Assembly: GCA_043797085.1 (NCBI GenBank)
Contig: JAZDQA010000004.1
Span: forward strand, 75,005-139,004
Source of the DNA: Pseudomonadota bacterium
GTDB taxonomy: Bacteria > Campylobacterota > Campylobacteria > Campylobacterales > Sulfurimonadaceae
Length of the DNA: 64,000 nt
Direction of reading: 5' to 3'
The notes beneath the pieces are model-generated. The model was not told the origin of the DNA, made no database searches, and worked only from the letters and a program-made list of their open reading frames with translations. A program made the translations under genes and the position numbers. Positions 48,206 to 58,191 of the stretch are shown piece by piece (position 1 is the first letter of the stretch; each line of letters starts with the position of its first letter).

Positions 48206-48805
48206 CTACCGCAGGATATAAACTAAAGGGAAAAGGACAATCCACAGTAAATCCACTAAATGCCAATAAAGTGCGCCTGTTTCAAGCCCTCTGCAATTCT
48301 CAGGACTGTAGCCATGAATTTTTGTTTTTCGGTAAAGATTGAATAAAATAATGACACCCAAAGAGACGTGCATAAAATGAAACATCGTTAACAGCAGATA
48401 AAACATAAAAAATGTATTGGTACTGAGGGTAATTCCCTGCGCAAAGAAATGAGAAAACTCAGTGAACTTTAAAACGAGAAACAGAATCCCTAAAAGCATC
48501 GCAGCTAAAAGCCATTTTGAAGCAATGATACTTGATTCATAAGCATTGCTTTGAGCCATGTTTTTGATTTTTTGAACCGCTTTGACGATAAAAAAACTGC
48601 TTGTAATTAAAATAAGTGTATTTATAAATCCGATACTTTGGTTGAGTAAAAGTTGAGAATCATTAAACATTTGCAGATTGACTCTACGTGAAAAAGCGTA
48701 TCCTGTAAACAATAACCCAAACGTCAGTAACTCCACGTAGACGATGATCCAAATGGCAAAATCACCCGGTGGATAGGGCTCTTTTTGTGAAAGAATTTTA
48801 GACAT
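48206..48805 (-). CDS. norE: NorE-like (cytochrome c oxidase subunit III family)
   Basis: NTLILITSS, FHFMHV, LYWHLVDLLWIVLFPLVY. Confidence 0.85.
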   Translation of the reverse strand: MSKILSQKEPYPPGDFAIWIIVYVELLTFGLLFTGYAFSRRVNLQMFNDSQLLLNQSIGFINTLILITSSFFIVKAVQKIKNMAQSNAYESSIIASKWLLAAMLLGILFLVLKFTEFSHFFAQGITLSTNTFFMFYLLLTMFHFMHVSLGVIILFNLYRKTKIHGYSPENCRGLETGALYWHLVDLLWIVLFPLVYILR

Positions 48806-49589
48806 GTAAGCTTTTGGTAAAATGGAGTGATATTAGCTTTTCAAGCACGTCTAGGACATCCTCTTCATCACTGAGCGATTCGACAATCGAATGCATACAC
48901 GCTTGATAAGGGTCAAAACCTTTTGTGATTAATTTACCTGCATAAATGAGTAATCGTGTTGATACCGCTTCTTGAATATCGCTGTCGCTTAGTCGGCGGA
49001 TTTCACCGGCTATATCGACAAGCTTTTGGGCTGTAGTACTTTCTACTCCACTTTCTTTAATAATGATTTCTTTTTCTATTTCAGGTTTTGGATAATCAAA
49101 ACTCAGTGAAATAAAGCGTTGTTTGGTACTGGGTTTCATCCCTTTTAATACATTCTGATACCCTGGATTGTACGATACTACGAGCATAAAATCAGGATGG
49201 GCAGTGATGACTTCACCGGTACGATCAATCGGTAAAACTCGACGATAATCGGCAAGAGAATGTAGTACTACCGTCGTATCTTTTCGCGCTTCGATAATCT
49301 CATCGAGATAGCAAATGCCCCCGTTACGCACCGCCTTTGTCAATGGTCCGTCTTGCCAATACGTGCCGTTTTCATCGATAAGGTGACGACCGACCAAATC
49401 GGCGGCACTGAGATCATCATGACAAACGACAGTATAAACATCGCGATCCAGCTCTTCCCCCATCGCTTCGACAAACCGTGTTTTTCCGCATCCTGTCGGT
49501 CCTTTGATTAATATAGGGAGGTTCATCCCCGCAGCCGCTTTGAAAAGCTCAACTTCGTTACCTTGGGGTAAATAGTACGTTTTTGACAT
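48798..49589 (-). CDS. norQ: NorQ AAA+ ATPase (MoxR/CbbQ family)
   Basis: KGPTGCGKT, YLDEIIEAR, SYNPGYQ, STRLL. Confidence 0.93.
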   Translation of the reverse strand: MSKTYYLPQGNEVELFKAAAGMNLPILIKGPTGCGKTRFVEAMGEELDRDVYTVVCHDDLSAADLVGRHLIDENGTYWQDGPLTKAVRNGGICYLDEIIEARKDTTVVLHSLADYRRVLPIDRTGEVITAHPDFMLVVSYNPGYQNVLKGMKPSTKQRFISLSFDYPKPEIEKEIIIKESGVESTTAQKLVDIAGEIRRLSDSDIQEAVSTRLLIYAGKLITKGFDPYQACMHSIVESLSDEEDVLDVLEKLISLHFTKSLHV

Positions 49590-49601
49590 AATGGTTCTCC
49601 T

Positions 49602-51367
49602 TTATTTGGTTAAATTCATATAGATTTCGGGTAAAACTTTTGGGAGTTTTTTGGCATCACGGATCACGGCGTATGAGTTTCTACCGAAAAGATAGGGGAG
49701 GTACTCTTTCGCATCGATATCGATCGTGATACAAAACGGAGTGATTCCCTTTTTCTTTACTTCTTCAATCGCTTTTTTCGTATCTTCGATCCCATAGCGC
49801 CCATCGTAGCGATCGACATCATTGGGTTTCCCGTCACTTAGAATCAGCAGGAGCTTATTGGCGCTTTGTTGTTTTTCTAAAATCTTGGCACTTTCGCGTA
49901 TTCCAGCCCCCATGCGGGTGTAATACCCAGGTTTGATGGCATGAATACGTCCTCGAACGTTGTCACTGTAGGCTTCTTTAAAATTTTTGATGATGTGAAA
50001 GTTGACTTTGGTATTTTTGATCGATGAAAAGGTATAGATGGCAAATCGATCTTGAAGACGGTGCAGGGATTCGGAAAATACCATCAATGCATCTTGGATC
50101 ATGTCGATGACACGTATCTCTTGCGTGATCCCAGCCTCCGTAGAGAGGGAAACATCCGCTAAAATCAATGTTGACATATCGCGCATCTTTCGCTCAAAGG
50201 TTTGAAAAAATCGCTGTGGATGGTTTGAACGATTTTGATGCCCTTTGTAATCGATCCACGACTCGATATTGATCTCATCGCCATAGGGGAGATTGTCTCT
50301 TTTGATCCGATCCAGTTCCATCAAATCAAGTTCACTTTGAATACGGCGCATCATTTTTTGCAGTCGTTTGGGTAATTCGATGGGCTGTGTGTGGAGCGAA
50401 ATAATGGGTTTTATACAGACATAGTTTTTGAGATAGACCTCTTTTTTATAGTCCCACTCATCGATAAAATGCCCTTTGCCCAGAGGATATTCTTCAACAC
50501 TGTTAGCCGAAATATCCAAATCCATTTTGATTCGTGCAGAGAGATTAGCATCTTTTTGACCCAGCGTTATCTCTTCTAAATCTTCGGCATTGTAAAGAGC
50601 ATCTTCATCAAAACTGTCATTTTCCTGCCGATCAACTCGCACTTGTTCCATCAGACTCATTATCGATTCAGGTAAAAAGAGCAGAAGTCCATCGGTCTCT
50701 TTTTTATCCTCGATTTGTTCGGTTTTTTTCTTCATCTGCAAGGTTTCACTCGTCCGAGGCTCGTCATTTTGTCGGAGAACTTCTTCTTCATCACCGCTAT
50801 CTAGGAGTTTATTCGAAGTAGAGAGTGAGGGGTAAATCCATAATAGATTGGGATAATTATCTGCTGATGAGCCTTCGATGGAAGGTTCAATTGTGGATAA
50901 TTCAGGATAGTGTTCGCGTAAATAGTGATGTGCATACGTATAAAATTCATGAAATCCAATATACTTTTCGATGAGACCATTGAGTGCATTGGTATTTTCT
51001 TCAGTCCTGTTTTTACGTTTGATATTCACGTTTGCAAGCATGGCGATCAACCAATAATAGTGCATCTCATTGTGCGCTTTCAGGGGAAAATACGCCAAAG
51101 TTGCAGGAAGGTAAATTCCTTTCTCATCTTGCCATGCAAGGAAAAAAGTTTTACCGGTTCCTGAAAATTTTTCGAGCAGTGTTCGTGAGGTTTTAATCGA
51201 TCGTTTGTCGGTAACATGAAGTTCTTTACCCTTTTCACCTCCTAGGAGGTGATAAAAGATTTTTAACCCTTTGGCAATGTCCGTAAAAACAACCTCTTCT
51301 TCTTTAAAAAGACGAGATGCTTTTTTCGTGACATAATGATCCCAAAATTTACCGACTTTTTCATCCA

Positions 51368-51368
<1 letters not shown>
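49602..51368 (-). CDS. norD: NorD VWA-domain activation protein
   Basis: MIDAS DVSLST, GYYTRMG, LSDGKPNDVDRYDGRYGIEDT. Confidence 0.92.
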
Positions 51369-52759
<1,391 letters not shown>

Positions 52760-53206
52760 TTATCCTTTGATATTTGGCGGCCACTCTTGATTGTTGACAC
52801 GAGATGTCCAAATCAAAAAGTCTGCAAGATTAGTCACTTGTTCAGGTGTTAAATGAAACTGAGGCATTTTTCTTCTATGTGGTATATCCATCGGCTGTGC
52901 CGCCATCCATCCGGCAAGATAAGTTTTGAATACTTCTTCATCGCCTCCGCCTAAACGTTGGAATGCGTTTCCAAGTTCCGGAGCATAATAAGCACCTTCA
53001 CCCATAATCGTATGACAACCAACACAATTGTTGTTTTCCCATACTTTTTTTCCAAGAGTAACAGATGCAGTAATCTTGTCATCATGACTTAATTTCGGGA
53101 TTTGCTTAACGGTATCAAAGGTAAGCCCGGTAAATACCAAAATGGCAAAAAGACCTCCGCCAAAGTAAATATTTCTGGCCATATTTTTAGTAATACGTTC
53201 AGACAT
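52760..53206 (-). CDS. norC: nitric oxide reductase subunit C
   Basis: TM anchor, CVGCH, YYAPEL, RKMPQF; start at ATG 53206. Confidence 0.95.
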   Translation of the reverse strand: MSERITKNMARNIYFGGGLFAILVFTGLTFDTVKQIPKLSHDDKITASVTLGKKVWENNNCVGCHTIMGEGAYYAPELGNAFQRLGGGDEEVFKTYLAGWMAAQPMDIPHRRKMPQFHLTPEQVTNLADFLIWTSRVNNQEWPPNIKG

Positions 53207-53222
53207 TTTAACTCCTATTTTT

Positions 53223-53291
53223 AATTCCACCATAGGGTAGTAATTGTAATATTAGCGGAATAGTTTTTAATTCTACCTTTAAGTAGTAATT
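53223..53291. promoter_or_regulatory. two copies of a 23-bp pseudo-palindromic motif in the norC promoter
   Basis: AATTCCACCATAGGGTAGTAATT (53223-45) and AATTCTACCTTTAAGTAGTAATT (53269-91), 18/23 identical. Copy 1 overlaps the minus-strand TACAAT (53243-48). Confidence 0.55.
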
Positions 53292-53462: not shown

Positions 53463-55103
53463 TTACGCACCTGGAAGATCCATGCGGTGCTCAATAGAAT
53501 AAGTAAATGTTGGTGTTGTTAGCCCAGTAATTTGGGTAATGTATTCACCTGTTTTTGCGTCAAATACTAATATTCGTCCACATGTCCAATCCGAAACATA
53601 CGTATGCTCCCCATGAGCAGCAGGTTCTCCATGCAGTAATCGAGGGACAATAAGTTCGCCTTTTTCATTTTTTACGGCACCAATATTCCATTCTTTTATC
53701 ACTTTGAGATTGTTCGGATCGATGAGCTGCACTTTGCCCTCTTTAGTCGCTTGGATAATGCGTCCGACCATCAACGTTTCTTTGTTGACTAGATGGATTT
53801 TATTATAATTGTCTTCTCCGCCGATAACGTTGTCCGCCCAAAGAAAAGGTGTATGTTCATTGGTTCCGATAAATAGTCCGCCGCCGGCTGTTTTGGTGTG
53901 TTTTAATACATGCCATTGGTTGTCCCAAACGGTTACATCGCCTACATTCATGTTGACCGTTGCATGAAGCTGTTTACCTAATTTTTCATTGTACCAGCTT
54001 GAACCTTGTCCAGGATGCGGCTTGCTTCCCGGTCCGGTATAGACTTTATCTGTTAATGTTTTGGTTTTAAAGTCTACTATCCCCATGACATCACTTCCTT
54101 GAGAAGCTATCATGTAGTAGCGTCCTACCTCTTCTCCCTCATTCAAGAAGGCATCGTGTAAGATTTTACCGATTTTAGGAATATCTCCGACGATAGGGAA
54201 ATCAGGCTTACTGTAATCGACGATATAGACGTGTCCTGCATCTTTAAGTGCAAATGCAATATATGGACCGTATGGAGTGTCGGCGATCGATGCAACACGA
54301 GAGGAGCCGATTTTGCCATCCATGTCTTCGACTTGATCGGTCGCATAGACTTTCAACGGTTTAAGTGTCATAGCATCCAAAAGTACGGCACCGCCTGGAA
54401 CATAGTTACCCGCCATGAGATAGCGACCATCGGGCGTACAAGCAAGTCCGCGACTGTCGCTGCCGACACGGATTTTAGCGATCATTGGTTGTCCTGGGGC
54501 ATTTAGATCAAACATATTGACCCATCCGTCACGACTGATGTTATACACGTAGCGAGGGATACGTTTATTGACTACGGTTACGTGAGTCGCGAAACCTGAG
54601 CTGTGTTTGGAGAGGACTTTGTTTGTTGTACCGTCAATAAATCCTACTTTTGAGGCATCCCGCTCGGTAAAGACCACGATATCCTGTACGCTTTTTACGT
54701 CCGTTGGTTTCGGATATTTTTTGTACAATTCTTCACGGTCTTGGAGGATTTGATGTGTAGCAACAACATCTTCCATGGTGAGTTTCGTTAACTGTTTTGC
54801 TTCATATTTTAAGAGATATTGCACCATTTTATCTGCATCATCACTGGTGAACGTACTCTTAAAATCAGGCATTGCAGTACCGGCTCTTCCGTTAAGTATC
54901 GTATCTCTCAGAAAATAATCTCCTTTTTTACCAATGGCTTTTGGGTCAAGAGAACTTCCTACACCACCTTCGTGATTGGGGCCATGACACCCTTGACACT
55001 CTTTGTCAAACATTTTTGCGACGTCCATTTTCGAATCGCCAGCCATTAGTGGAAGGGTTATAAAAAGAGCGCTCGCCAGGGTTGCTCCAAGAATCTTTTT
55101 CAT
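53463..55103 (-). CDS. nirS: cytochrome cd1 nitrite reductase
   Basis: Signal peptide, CQGCH c-domain with AMP Met ligand, d1 propeller with GFATH (d1 ligand His), ILHD and PHPGQG (catalytic His pair). Confidence 0.88.
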   Translation of the reverse strand: MKKILGATLASALFITLPLMAGDSKMDVAKMFDKECQGCHGPNHEGGVGSSLDPKAIGKKGDYFLRDTILNGRAGTAMPDFKSTFTSDDADKMVQYLLKYEAKQLTKLTMEDVVATHQILQDREELYKKYPKPTDVKSVQDIVVFTERDASKVGFIDGTTNKVLSKHSSGFATHVTVVNKRIPRYVYNISRDGWVNMFDLNAPGQPMIAKIRVGSDSRGLACTPDGRYLMAGNYVPGGAVLLDAMTLKPLKVYATDQVEDMDGKIGSSRVASIADTPYGPYIAFALKDAGHVYIVDYSKPDFPIVGDIPKIGKILHDAFLNEGEEVGRYYMIASQGSDVMGIVDFKTKTLTDKVYTGPGSKPHPGQGSSWYNEKLGKQLHATVNMNVGDVTVWDNQWHVLKHTKTAGGGLFIGTNEHTPFLWADNVIGGEDNYNKIHLVNKETLMVGRIIQATKEGKVQLIDPNNLKVIKEWNIGAVKNEKGELIVPRLLHGEPAAHGEHTYVSDWTCGRILVFDAKTGEYITQITGLTTPTFTYSIEHRMDLPGA

Positions 55104-55203
55104 TCGTTACTCCTTGCATTTGTAAAATATGGATAGGGCATAGTTCGTAAAGCTTTATGGATCCTACTTGAGTTAGTGTACTTGAAAAGGGGAGGCAGCT
55201 TCA

Positions 55204-55217
55204 TTGATATAAATCAA
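55204..55217 (-). promoter_or_regulatory. Fnr/Nss-type box, nirS promoter
   Basis: TTGAT-ATAA-ATCAA (perfect FNR consensus); minus-strand TACACT at 55175-55180 (23 nt gap). Confidence 0.85.
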
Positions 55218-55231
55218 ATTTTTTAAAGTTT

Positions 55232-55873
55232 TTAAGAAAAAAGTTCTTTTAGTCCCTCTCGATTCAAGATGGTGAAATTTTTCCCCTCATCACTGATGAG
55301 TCCGAGAATCTTGATTTTTTTGAAAGAGCGTGAGAGTGTTTCGGGGGTAAGTCCTAAAATCGTTGCAATCTTATGTCTCTTGGTTGAATCGGAAATATCT
55401 CCATTTTCATATAAGAATTTAGCCACACGGGAGGTTGCATCCAGTGCTAACCGTGTGGTAATAATATCTTCGAGGTATTTGAGCTTTTGAGTCAGCGATT
55501 TTATCAATTCAAAGGATACGGTAGGATTTTTTAGAAAATCACGCTCAAAAATAGGATAATCGATTTCCAAAATACTTCCATCCGTTTGAAATTCTGCGGT
55601 TGCCGGGAATGGAATATGGTGAAGATTGGCCATTTCTGCTACTAACGAAACGGGATAAAAATAGTGCAGTACGATTTCGTTTTCTTTCATATCTGTTTTG
55701 TAGCCTTTGAGGACACCGTCTAGTAATATATAAAGTTTATCCGAATGAGTCCCCTCATAAAAGAGGATCTCACCATTATTAAAGGATCGTAGTTTTACGA
55801 TAGAGGCTAAATGAATTAAATCTGTTTCGCTCAGATGTGAAAAAAGAAAAATACTTTTTAATCGGTTCACCAT
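55232..55873 (-). CDS. Crp/Fnr-family regulator (DNR/Nss-like)
   Basis: LYILLDGVLKGYK, AEMAN, FPATA, HTH LGLTPETLSRSF. ATG 55873 overlaps the receptor stop (TAATG). Confidence 0.92.
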   Translation of the reverse strand: MVNRLKSIFLFSHLSETDLIHLASIVKLRSFNNGEILFYEGTHSDKLYILLDGVLKGYKTDMKENEIVLHYFYPVSLVAEMANLHHIPFPATAEFQTDGSILEIDYPIFERDFLKNPTVSFELIKSLTQKLKYLEDIITTRLALDATSRVAKFLYENGDISDSTKRHKIATILGLTPETLSRSFKKIKILGLISDEGKNFTILNREGLKELFS

Positions 55874-58056
55874 TAAAGTTTCAAATTGGTTTGTAGATAC
55901 CATGATCGTCCTTCTGCTTTTTCATAACTGTAATACTCTTTGTTCATAAGATTGCTAATCGCAAGATTGATATCAATGTTTTTGTTGATTCTGTATCCGA
56001 TCTTCGTATTGACGATTCCGGCAGCATCCAAGGAGCCGTAGACATTAGAGACACTATCGCTATTATCGGAATTATTGTAAATTTTGGATTGATAGGCATA
56101 GTTAATCAGACCATAAAATTGATGATTATCATAGGTGAGAGTTGCATTGGCCATATCTCTTGGAATGCCGGTGAACTGTTTATCAACGGATGCTGGATCG
56201 CTCTCATTTTCTAAAACTTTTGTATAGGATTTCGTATAATTGGTGTTGAGGGTAAAATCATAGTCAAGCGGCTGAATGTACGATAATTCATACCCCTGAG
56301 AGCGTGCTTTTCCAACGTTTGTTCTTTCATAATAACTTTTTCCGGCAATGATAACAGGCGTTTTAGTGGAGATCATATCTTCGATTGTGGTATGAAACCA
56401 ATACGCTTTAAAAAGACCGTTTAAGACTGTTTTTTTCTCTATCCCCACATCATACGATTCGCTGTACTCCGGTTTTAGATTCGGATTCGACACATAAACT
56501 CTATTTAATGCTGCAATTTCATACGTTCGATAAAGATTGACCGGATCAGGAGCTCTGAAAGCTTGCCCCCAGGATGCTTTGATCATCGTGTCGTCTGTTG
56601 CTTTATAGTTGAGAGATATTTTTGGGGAAAAATTATTTTTGTGTTGGGTAGAATAGGTTTGATTGAGCGTTGTATTGGACATATTGATATCAGAAACATA
56701 TCCATCATAGCTGGTCCATGTTTCGAATCGGGCCCCGATATTGGCTGATAGACTATCGGTTAGTTTACTTTGCAGCTCTGCAAAAGCCGCTAATATTTGC
56801 TCTTTCCCACCTGAGCTCGCGGTCCTATTTGTTTTGGTGTCTTCATTTTTCCAATCGCTCATATTGAAGGTATCGGAAACGGATACATTATTTTTATATT
56901 CACTTCCCAGTAAAAGAAGAGAACTTCCGATAGGTTTTTGCCACGTTGCATGGAGCATAGCGTTTTTGACATCTCTTGGGGTAAAAGTACCAACTCCGCC
57001 TGTGCGTGTCGCCGATGTACCTGCAGTGGTATACCAATCTTCTACAGACAAGTATGAATAGCGGATATCCAACTCGGAATCCGAAAAAGTATGTCCGTAA
57101 TCAAGGATAGTGAGATCACTGTTCAGCTCACTGGAACCTTGTAAAAATTTAGATTCTTTTAGTCCTGCATAGGTATAGACAGTATTTCCAGAAGCATTAC
57201 TAATAAATGATTCAGGATCATTGTAGTGCACATCATAATGGGATTTTCGATACGAAGCACTCAGGGTGTCTTTGGCCGTTGGTGTATAGAGCAGTTTGGT
57301 TGAAAGATCATATTTGTGAACACCACGATCACCTGCATTTCCGACAATATATTGTGTCCCTCCGGTGGGAGAAGGCTCCGTGATGTATCCGCTAATCGTA
57401 CCGGGAGGCTTTGTGGTAATGGCAACAAAATCGGATTTATATCCATCAGTACTTAACGCGCCATAGCTGACTTTGAATTTTAAAGTATCAATGATCTTAT
57501 CCGCAGCCGATACATAGACCTTGGTCAAATTAGCCTGCGCTTCACCGTCATTAAATGCATCTCCGTACCCGATAGAGGCTTTGTACTCAGGCTCATTTGG
57601 CATTTTGGTAATATAATTGATGACACCGCCTATAGCACTGCTGCCATAAAGGCTCGAAAATGGTCCCCGAATCACTTCAACCCGTTCTAAATCTTCAGGC
57701 TGAATAGAATAGGGCATCGAAGCCGTACTCGTATAGCTGGTATTCATTGGAATTCCATCGAGTAGTATCATCGTACGTGATTGATCCGGAATCCCTCGAA
57801 GCACAACCGTAGGATTGACATCTGATAATCCCCTATGTTGAATAACTGTAACTCCCTCAAGTGTTTTTACAGTCTCTTTTAGATTGGCTCTTGGTAACAT
57901 TCCAATAGCTTCTTGTGTAACAACACTGACGCTTCCGGGAGCATCTTCGAGAGTTGTTTCTGTCTTGGTTGCGGTAACAATGATAGGATCTAAGGAAACT
58001 CCATCCGCAATTAAATAGGTTGTGACGACCAAAAAAAGTAGTATCTTTTTTTTCAT
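55873..58056 (-). CDS. TonB-dependent outer membrane receptor
   Basis: TonB box (IIVTAT), plug (LRG...LLDG, ERVEVIRGPFSSLYGSSAIGGVINYIT), FRAP and NPNL motifs. Confidence 0.93.
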   Translation of the reverse strand: MKKKILLFLVVTTYLIADGVSLDPIIVTATKTETTLEDAPGSVSVVTQEAIGMLPRANLKETVKTLEGVTVIQHRGLSDVNPTVVLRGIPDQSRTMILLDGIPMNTSYTSTASMPYSIQPEDLERVEVIRGPFSSLYGSSAIGGVINYITKMPNEPEYKASIGYGDAFNDGEAQANLTKVYVSAADKIIDTLKFKVSYGALSTDGYKSDFVAITTKPPGTISGYITEPSPTGGTQYIVGNAGDRGVHKYDLSTKLLYTPTAKDTLSASYRKSHYDVHYNDPESFISNASGNTVYTYAGLKESKFLQGSSELNSDLTILDYGHTFSDSELDIRYSYLSVEDWYTTAGTSATRTGGVGTFTPRDVKNAMLHATWQKPIGSSLLLLGSEYKNNVSVSDTFNMSDWKNEDTKTNRTASSGGKEQILAAFAELQSKLTDSLSANIGARFETWTSYDGYVSDINMSNTTLNQTYSTQHKNNFSPKISLNYKATDDTMIKASWGQAFRAPDPVNLYRTYEIAALNRVYVSNPNLKPEYSESYDVGIEKKTVLNGLFKAYWFHTTIEDMISTKTPVIIAGKSYYERTNVGKARSQGYELSYIQPLDYDFTLNTNYTKSYTKVLENESDPASVDKQFTGIPRDMANATLTYDNHQFYGLINYAYQSKIYNNSDNSDSVSNVYGSLDAAGIVNTKIGYRINKNIDINLAISNLMNKEYYSYEKAEGRSWYLQTNLKL

Positions 58057-58177
58057 ATTAACTCCTATTTCAGGGATTTTTTAATCTATACTACTCAAAT
58101 TAAGCCTTTAGGAGCGGAAAGAGGAAATTAGTTACGTAAAGAATAGGTAATTGTAAAGAGTTTGAAGAATAAAGTCT

Positions 58178-58191
58178 TTGATATAAGTCAA
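58178..58191 (-). promoter_or_regulatory. Fnr/Nss-type box, TonB receptor-regulator operon promoter
   Basis: TTGAT-ATAA-GTCAA; minus-strand TACAAT at 58150-58155 (22 nt gap). Confidence 0.8.

Follow-up and report, generated by a model that had tools for sequence, protein, structure and literature searches.

The nirS gene, which encodes cytochrome cd1 nitrite reductase, is the standard marker gene for one of two classes of denitrifiers, both in surveys and in models of nitrogen loss and nitrous oxide (N2O) emission. In Pseudomonas and Paracoccus, nirS belongs to the canonical cluster nirS(M)CFDLGHJEN, of which the Sulfurimonadaceae have a version of their own. Here we describe a nirS locus of a different kind in a stretch of 64,000 nucleotides of genomic DNA (G000:C4:75005-139004, hereafter the window). 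Its NirS is orthologous to that of the canonical clusters and has the same haem d1 pocket, and the locus shares with the canonical cluster of the family the Crp/Fnr regulator, the regulatory box and the neighboring nor genes. Unlike the organisms with canonical clusters, the window genome lacks the genes for cofactor synthesis and maturation and carries a gene for a TonB-dependent receptor (TBDR) instead. We consider it reasonably probable that this receptor carries haem d1 from outside the cell into the periplasm, the compartment in which NirS would receive it. The genome comprises 2.40 Mb in 14 contigs and is 95.9% complete. Going by the names of its relatives, the organism belongs to the genus Sulfuricurvum: homologues of the receptor bear that name, and the same-genus genome G119 is a named Sulfuricurvum assembly.

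A first-pass annotation, made from the sequence of the window alone, had noted that haem d1 genes were missing from these 64 kb, and our search of the window likewise detected none. The absence extended to the whole genome. As for NirF and NirN, nirS is the sole Cytochrom_D1 gene in the 2.40 Mb; the siroheme-decarboxylase domain of NirDLGH (PF17805) had no match in the whole genome, and the best match to NirJ in the genome scored 45 bits against a cut-off of 515 bits. The proteins of a canonical cluster from a family relative (a nirDLGH fusion, nirS, nirC, nirJ, nirF, and nirE) were also used as queries in a tblastn search of the whole genome, in which NirDLGH retrieved nothing, NirJ retrieved a remote radical S-adenosylmethionine match, and NirF retrieved nirS only. 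Two NirE-like methyltransferases are encoded, as expected for siroheme or B12 synthesis. The genome-wide search proposed in the annotation therefore revealed no nirF, nirN, nirDLGH, or nirJ and no complete pathway elsewhere, and the known route to haem d1 is not available to this organism. Two ferrochelatase genes show that it does produce its own ordinary haem. The nirS gene sits inside a long contig with norC directly after it, and the nor block that follows nirS occupies the place of nirC-nirJ-nirF-nirE-nirDLGH in the canonical relatives.

NirS itself carries a signal peptide and, at residue 36, the haem c site CQGCH, and its domains are PF13442 and PF02239. In an alignment with the Paracoccus enzyme, its proximal histidine and both distal histidines matched His200, His345, and His388 (numbers obtained by counting along the aligned chain), and the arginine motifs neighboring the d1 histidines were also kept. 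The protein is 82% identical to the canonical NirS of the same genus and 66% identical to the NirS of a canonical family relative. The d1 ligand and pocket motifs were identical in receptor-type and canonical NirS, with just eight conservative positions differing between the two. Among the d1-less genomes, the ratio of nonsynonymous to synonymous substitution rates (dN/dS) of nirS was 0.019-0.033, at dS values above 1 (saturated), and NirS in these genomes is under strong purifying selection. Judged by its sequence, NirS looks fully functional and d1-dependent. By sequence, the NirS of the family resembled the solved NirN (6rtd, 143 bits) no less closely than the solved NirS (135 bits), as seen with the nirS of the window (53463-55103) and with the loci L026 and L027, and the canonical nir clusters of the Sulfurimonadaceae contain no separate NirN; this suggests that the last step of d1 synthesis or the loading of the cofactor may differ in the Campylobacterota. 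Two Sulfuricurvum relatives have, right after nirS and far from nrdD, an open reading frame of 54 amino acids with a match to the glycyl-radical domain NRDD (L020:14703-14867 and L021:5622-5786), which recalls the split NrdD noted in the window by the first-pass annotation.

Cytochrom_D1 genes were found in 165 of the 353 Sulfurimonadaceae genomes, and orthologues of the receptor (E < 1e-200) in exactly 11, nine of which belong to the window genus, one to genus g6, and one to the large genus g2. The receptor gene and nirS share a strand in all 11 genomes and are 1-2.5 kb apart. Because some weak NirF matches had dropped out of the large search, 24 genomes, comprising the 11 receptor genomes and 13 nirS controls without the receptor, were re-tested directly. 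Each of the 11 receptor genomes gave a single Cytochrom_D1 (PF02239) match and zero PF17805 matches; PF17805 was present in all 13 controls, with two matches each. The best NirJ match was at most 51 bits in the receptor genomes, whereas it was 506-748 bits in the controls. The annotation had raised the question of whether the receptor occurs across genomes together with nirS lacking d1 genes, and the result was strongly positive, the orthologue being confined to the 11 genomes in which nirS occurs without nirF, nirDLGH, and nirJ.

Both types of locus occur in the window genus. The canonical one has the order nirS-nirC-nirJ-nirF-nirE-nirDLGH, with adjoining nor genes 91-95% identical to those of the window, and the receptor-type one has the order (nrdD-nrdG-cytochrome c-)TBDR-crp-nirS-norCBDQE. 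The receptor-type NirS proteins of g2 and g6 fell in the NirS clade of the window genus with 80% identity; for the canonical g2 NirS the value was 63%. The receptors of the three genera, together with 22 metagenomic relatives, formed one fully supported clade, with 47-50% identity across genera, and a metagenomic member of this clade shares with G043 the order qNor-TBDR-crp-nirS-Rrf2. Going by these trees and gene orders, the TBDR-crp-nirS module appears to be old and mobile and to have moved between genera as a unit. A 400-genome sample of the phylum contained no close receptor orthologue outside the family, and a scan of metagenome contigs yielded one close locus only.

A second, independent case was found in an unrelated Gallionella-type family. 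A scan of GTDB genome contigs with the clade alignment suffered from patterns that were too general and brought up mainly distant TBDRs; the one useful hit was the locus L055 of a Gallionella bin, in which a classical NirS gene adjoins a TBDR gene and whose genome is without NirF, NirN, and NirDLGH. We then sampled 151 genomes of this family, 36 of which have nirS. No second Cytochrom_D1 protein and no NirDLGH were found in 27 of the 36, and the other nine have NirF, NirN, and four NirDLGH domains; the pattern was noted at the loci L135-L154 and, more generally, among the genomes G719-G858. One receptor clade was carried by all 27 d1-less genomes, one of which appears closed (3.0 Mb, with nirS on a contig of 3,003,656 bases). 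The receptor gene directly follows nirS (norCB-nirS-TBDR) in 19 of the 21 loci inspected; in the remaining two, both genes are on one contig, separated by 14-16 kb. In G826, two tandem copies of nirS are followed by the receptor gene. The Gallionella-type receptor is approximately 30% identical to that of the window in a full-length alignment, and its best match is also the haem-receptor subfamily; its clade lies far from the clade of the window receptor in the tree, and the Gallionella-type NirS is 27% identical to the NirS of the window. Taken together, each of the two phyla has its own NirS lineage paired with its own receptor clade, exactly where the d1 genes are missing.

The receptor of the window has a plug domain (PF07715, E 1e-24) and a barrel domain (PF00593, E 1.8e-53) in Pfam, and a signal peptide followed by a TonB box, DPIIVTAT, at residues 23-30. 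The AlphaFold model, with a predicted local distance difference test score (pLDDT) of 90.8, shows a predicted plug and a 22-strand barrel, and three ExbB/ExbD loci of the genome are available for powering the receptor. Reading of the residues bore out the presence of FRAP (500-503) and NPNL (524-527) without a histidine in the intervening FRAPDPVNLYRTYEIAALNRVYVSNPNL, as the annotation had described. The top-scoring curated family was the haem/haemoglobin receptor subfamily TIGR01785. The score for the PqqU family NF041535 was 106 bits against a cut-off of 1200, which does not make the protein a member, and the receptor fell outside the curated groups of siderophore and B12 receptors. PqqU/YncD was among the nearest solved relatives by both sequence and fold, PhuR was the third-best solved match by sequence, and a fold search against the PDB gave TM-scores of approximately 0.7 to many solved TBDRs. 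Arg270, His273, Arg519 (loop 7), and several tyrosines, all specific to the clade, are candidates for ligand contact only. Among the d1-less genomes, the dN/dS of the receptor was 0.11-0.16. Copper uptake of the NosA/OprC type was considered as a function and rejected, because the receptor contains no cysteine at all; in the sequence comparison, OprC was only a weak match.

The annotation had given the order of the locus as box-TBDR-crp/fnr (overlapping as TAATG)-box-nirS-norCB, and every element was recovered in its place (Table 1). The full order on the minus strand is Fnr-type box, TBDR, Crp/Fnr regulator, Fnr-type box, nirS, and norCBDQE. Ten boxes of the TTGAT-N4-ATCAA type were counted in the window against 0.69 expected from shuffled sequences, and none of 100 shuffles reached ten. 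The same type of box stands ahead of both the TBDR gene and nirS, and the remaining ones sit 5' of nrdD, nap, and further anaerobic genes. The distance from the Fnr-type box of the TBDR gene to a putative TACAAT -10 hexamer is that of class II promoters. A scan for Fur-like boxes gave a match at background level only, with an enterobacterial consensus that may not be that of the host. Both results agree with the co-regulation of the receptor and nirS put forward in the annotation. The ATG of the regulator gene overlaps the stop codon of the TBDR gene as TAATG, and the regulator is probably translationally coupled to the TBDR through this overlap. Its domains place the regulator in the Crp/Fnr family, with NssR-, Dnr-, or NnrR-like proteins as candidate subclasses. 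It contains no cysteine and hence lacks the N-terminal iron-sulfur cysteine cluster of FNR proper, so that it is not an iron-sulfur FNR. The leader of the TBDR gene contains a conserved core, GTATAGATTAAAAAA, which occurs once in the whole genome. In five relatives (L030-L034) this core forms the 5' arm of a long hairpin, and the element at L031:10606-10745 folds at z = -4.9; an Rfam search of the leaders gave no match. A dispersed repeat of the REP (repetitive extragenic palindromic) type was rejected, because the motif is unique in the genome. The leader element may act as a promoter or operator or, alternatively, as a regulatory RNA.

Table 1. Features of the receptor-nirS locus and the adjoining nor genes (positions within the window).
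Feature	Position	Strand	Remarks
Fnr/Crp-type box, TTGACTTATATCAA on the coding strand	58178..58191	-	128 nucleotides 5' of the TBDR start codon; pattern search
Candidate -10 hexamer, TACAAT	58150..58155	-	22 nucleotides past the box, class II spacing; putative, from sequence reading
Leader motif, GTATAGATTAAAAAA, conserved	58077..58091	-	Core of the leader element 58072-58094
TonB-dependent receptor (TBDR), 727 amino acids, proposed haem d1 importer	55873..58056	-	Pfam, NCBIfam, AlphaFold model, tree, genome distribution
Loop 7 segment from FRAP to NPNL, residues 500-527, without His and with the clade-specific Arg519	56476..56559	-	
Crp/Fnr-family regulator, 213 amino acids	55232..55873	-	cNMP_binding and HTH_Crp_2 domains
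Fnr/Crp-type box, TTGATTTATATCAA	55204..55217	-	Approximately 107 nucleotides 5' of the nirS start; kept in 9 of 10 related loci
nirS, cytochrome cd1 nitrite reductase, 546 amino acids	53463..55103	-	Cytochrom_D1 (209 bits) and c-type haem domain
norC	52760..53233	-	Directly 3' of nirS
norB	51368..52750	-	
norD	49602..51368	-	
norQ	48798..49589	-	
norE, COX3-like	48206..48805	-	Last gene of the nor block (48206..53233)

These observations can be combined in the following scheme. The cysteine-free regulator of the Crp/Fnr family would activate the receptor gene along with an anaerobic set that includes nirS, nap, and nrdD, and neighboring denitrifiers that produce d1 would release haem d1, or a very close isobacteriochlorin of the d1 type. 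The outer-membrane receptor, powered by TonB, would take up this compound and deliver it to the periplasm, where the exported NirS would receive its cofactor. An inner-membrane transporter would be unneeded because NirS obtains its cofactor in the periplasm, and none is encoded in the module. TBDR-crp-nirS would then substitute functionally for the block nirC-nirJ-nirF-nirE-nirDLGH, and periplasmic delivery of d1 would explain why a lone receptor can stand in for a set of five or six genes of biosynthesis, why its regulation follows nirS and not iron, and why, in the Sulfurimonadaceae, it is confined to nirS genomes without d1 genes. We infer haem d1 as the ligand from the distribution and the topology of the cell, and the direction of supply and spontaneous loading of NirS in the absence of NirF and NirN are likewise part of the proposal. 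The annotation had proposed that the receptor imports haem d1, another tetrapyrrole, or iron, making the organism a possible d1 scavenger. Scavenging gained support from the absence of the d1 genes and from the distribution in two families, while the identity of the ligand is still only deduced. The findings that the annotation had listed as speaking against its proposal, namely a complete pathway elsewhere in the genome, a grouping with siderophore or B12 receptors, and control by Fur, were all looked for, and none was obtained.

Several points nevertheless weigh against the import of haem d1 by this receptor. A search of the literature found no report of free haem d1 in the environment. The maturation of NirS as described in PMC3694632 involves NirF and NirN, and both of these factors are absent from the window genome. 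The receptor scored 205.3 bits for TIGR01785, below the family cut-off of 316.85, and the histidine between FRAP and NPNL that characterizes the haem subfamily is missing. The fold search singled out no ligand class, with Cir, PfeA, PqqU, PhuR, ChuA, and BtuB matching approximately equally, and comparison of the two nirS-linked receptor clades revealed no signature residues of note common to both. The contexts of the sister clades are unrelated to nirS, and some more distant relatives linked to CobN stand beside CobW and a regulator of the Fur family, which fits metal uptake. Finally, the receptor clade of the Gallionella-type family is also present in two of the nine d1-producing genomes; these two producers may also recapture the cofactor or may be evolutionary intermediates. 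The loci concerned are G758:C22:2978-15100 and G747:C14:4-4441, in one of which the receptor gene ends a canonical nir cluster.

Four other explanations were weighed against uptake of haem d1. The receptor might import ordinary haem or an iron complex to cover the large amounts of iron that Nap, NirS, and Nor require in the absence of oxygen, with d1 made by an unrecognized pathway. The assignment to the haem/haemoglobin receptor subfamily, the FRAP and NPNL motifs, and the occurrence of TBDRs of the broad family in many contexts without nirS fit this idea; however, the canonical nirS genomes share the same iron demand, yet none of those with d1 genes among the 353 family genomes has the orthologue. 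The genome also makes its own haem and shows no Fur-type box, and the unrecognized pathway would have to arise twice, both times alongside a receptor, so that we regard this explanation as unlikely. Still less probable in our judgment is that NirS works without d1, as a c-type cytochrome, a nitric oxide- or nitrite-binding protein, or a scaffold, and that the receptor has nothing to do with the cofactor. A d1-free NirS is reported to be stable enough to form crystals (bioRxiv 10.1101/2020.02.12.945543), and the d1 genes are indeed absent, but ligand and pocket motifs identical to those of d1-using relatives, a dN/dS of approximately 0.02, and the persistence of nirS with norCB in one regulon and operon context all speak for an enzyme that uses d1, and the strict linkage to a receptor in two phyla would be left without a reason.

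Import of a non-tetrapyrrole metal species, such as a cobalt, nickel, or zinc chelate, or of another small molecule is suggested by relatives of the receptor that adjoin CobN, CobW, a Fur-family regulator, and CbiM. No requirement for these metals is known for NirS, NorCB, or the regulator, though, and the distribution follows the loss of d1 genes and no metal enzyme; the lack of cysteine also means that a copper site of the OprC type is missing. We accordingly hold this to be very unlikely. An artefact of assembly or binning, by which real d1 genes were left unassembled, would be easiest to imagine for genomes that mostly look like metagenome bins, including that of the window at 95.9% completeness. 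The same absence in 38 genomes of two families, at least one of them apparently closed, and the presence of norC on long contigs at the very place, right after nirS, where canonical relatives carry the d1 genes, make such an artefact barely credible.

Beyond the nirS-linked clades, sister clades approximately 50% identical to the receptor were found in an operon encoding an unknown 275-amino-acid protein, a NapH-like protein, DsbD_2, the TBDR, and ExbBD-TonB, or alone in Rhodocyclaceae-type contigs. A paralogous cluster outside the window (G000:C13:270240-279349) encodes ExbB-ExbD, a NapH-like ferredoxin, a TBDR (31% identical), and DsbD_2, an arrangement that recurs around the 50%-identical sister receptors in the metagenomic contigs L022, L024, and L025. 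Receptor relatives farther away adjoin CobN-type proteins, ATP-binding cassette (ABC) importers of the Peripla_BP_2/FecCD (B12/haem) type, cobalamin genes, and CobW. In L045, L155, L156, and L157, distant relatives are linked to CobN-type proteins of approximately 1250-1340 amino acids, to DUF2149/DUF2162, and to FecCD or CobW with a Fur-family regulator; such TBDR-chelatase operons are an uncharacterized class. HmuS, which is a haem dechelatase, is one of the CobN-type proteins (PMC12583661), and the wider receptor family is therefore tied to the handling of metallo-tetrapyrroles or metals, which does not fix the ligand.

Our literature search found no paper on the uptake of haem d1, on auxotrophy for it, on its scavenging, or on a nirS-linked receptor, and nothing relevant on the nirS of Sulfuricurvum. 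A pangenome paper on the Gallionellaceae and a preprint on Ferrigenium treat nirS, with haem d1 unmentioned. The present data suggest that many "denitrifiers" take the d1 cofactor from their neighbors. Whether haem d1 is a traded public good, with a sizeable share of nirS bacteria relying on dedicated receptors recruited at least twice, is a question on which we find the balance even, the material being the 11 Sulfurimonadaceae genomes and 27 of the 36 nirS genomes of the Gallionella-type family. If import of haem d1 is confirmed, the presence of nirS alone would be no predictor of denitrifying ability, the first haem d1 transporter would have been identified, loading of NirS in vivo would be possible without NirF or NirN, and a new, tractable case of cofactor cross-feeding would stand beside vitamin B12 and pyrroloquinoline quinone (PQQ). 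If many carriers of nirS are d1-less, activity would depend on the composition of the community, and failed isolation under denitrifying conditions would receive a concrete explanation.

Known receptors resemble the one described here to different degrees. The haem receptors PhuR, ShuA/ChuA, HasR, and HemR are likewise 22-strand TBDRs with FRAP and NPNL in loop 7, and their subfamily TIGR01785 scored highest for the window receptor; unlike them, the latter falls below the cut-off, has no histidine between the two boxes, shows no sign of Fur-type control, and has no attached genes for haem degradation or inner-membrane uptake. As the cell has ferrochelatases, supply of iron or haem b is not the role we would assign to it. 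In the HmuR-HmuS operons (PMC12583661), a TBDR is combined with a CobN-like dechelatase, and distant members of the receptor family also stand beside CobN-like proteins and FecCD/Peripla_BP_2, whereas the nirS-linked clade has neither CobN nor an ABC importer nor a dechelatase, and what it imports would serve unaltered in the periplasm. NosA/OprC (PDB 6fok and others) is a precedent, being a TBDR through which part of a cofactor reaches an enzyme of denitrification in the periplasm and which is linked to the maturation of N2O reductase, but OprC binds copper via cysteine, methionine, and histidine, and the window receptor has no cysteine. By analogy, the closest functional counterpart would be PqqU (YncD; PDB 9c4o; bioRxiv 10.64898/2026.04.27.721047), which provides PQQ for periplasmic dehydrogenases. 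PqqU, too, is a TBDR that scavenges a redox cofactor for periplasmic enzymes, also in organisms that do not make it, and in both systems crossing of the outer membrane would suffice. The two differ in that PQQ is no tetrapyrrole and in that the window receptor belongs to a regulon of the anaerobic or nitric oxide type and is joined to the gene of its client enzyme.

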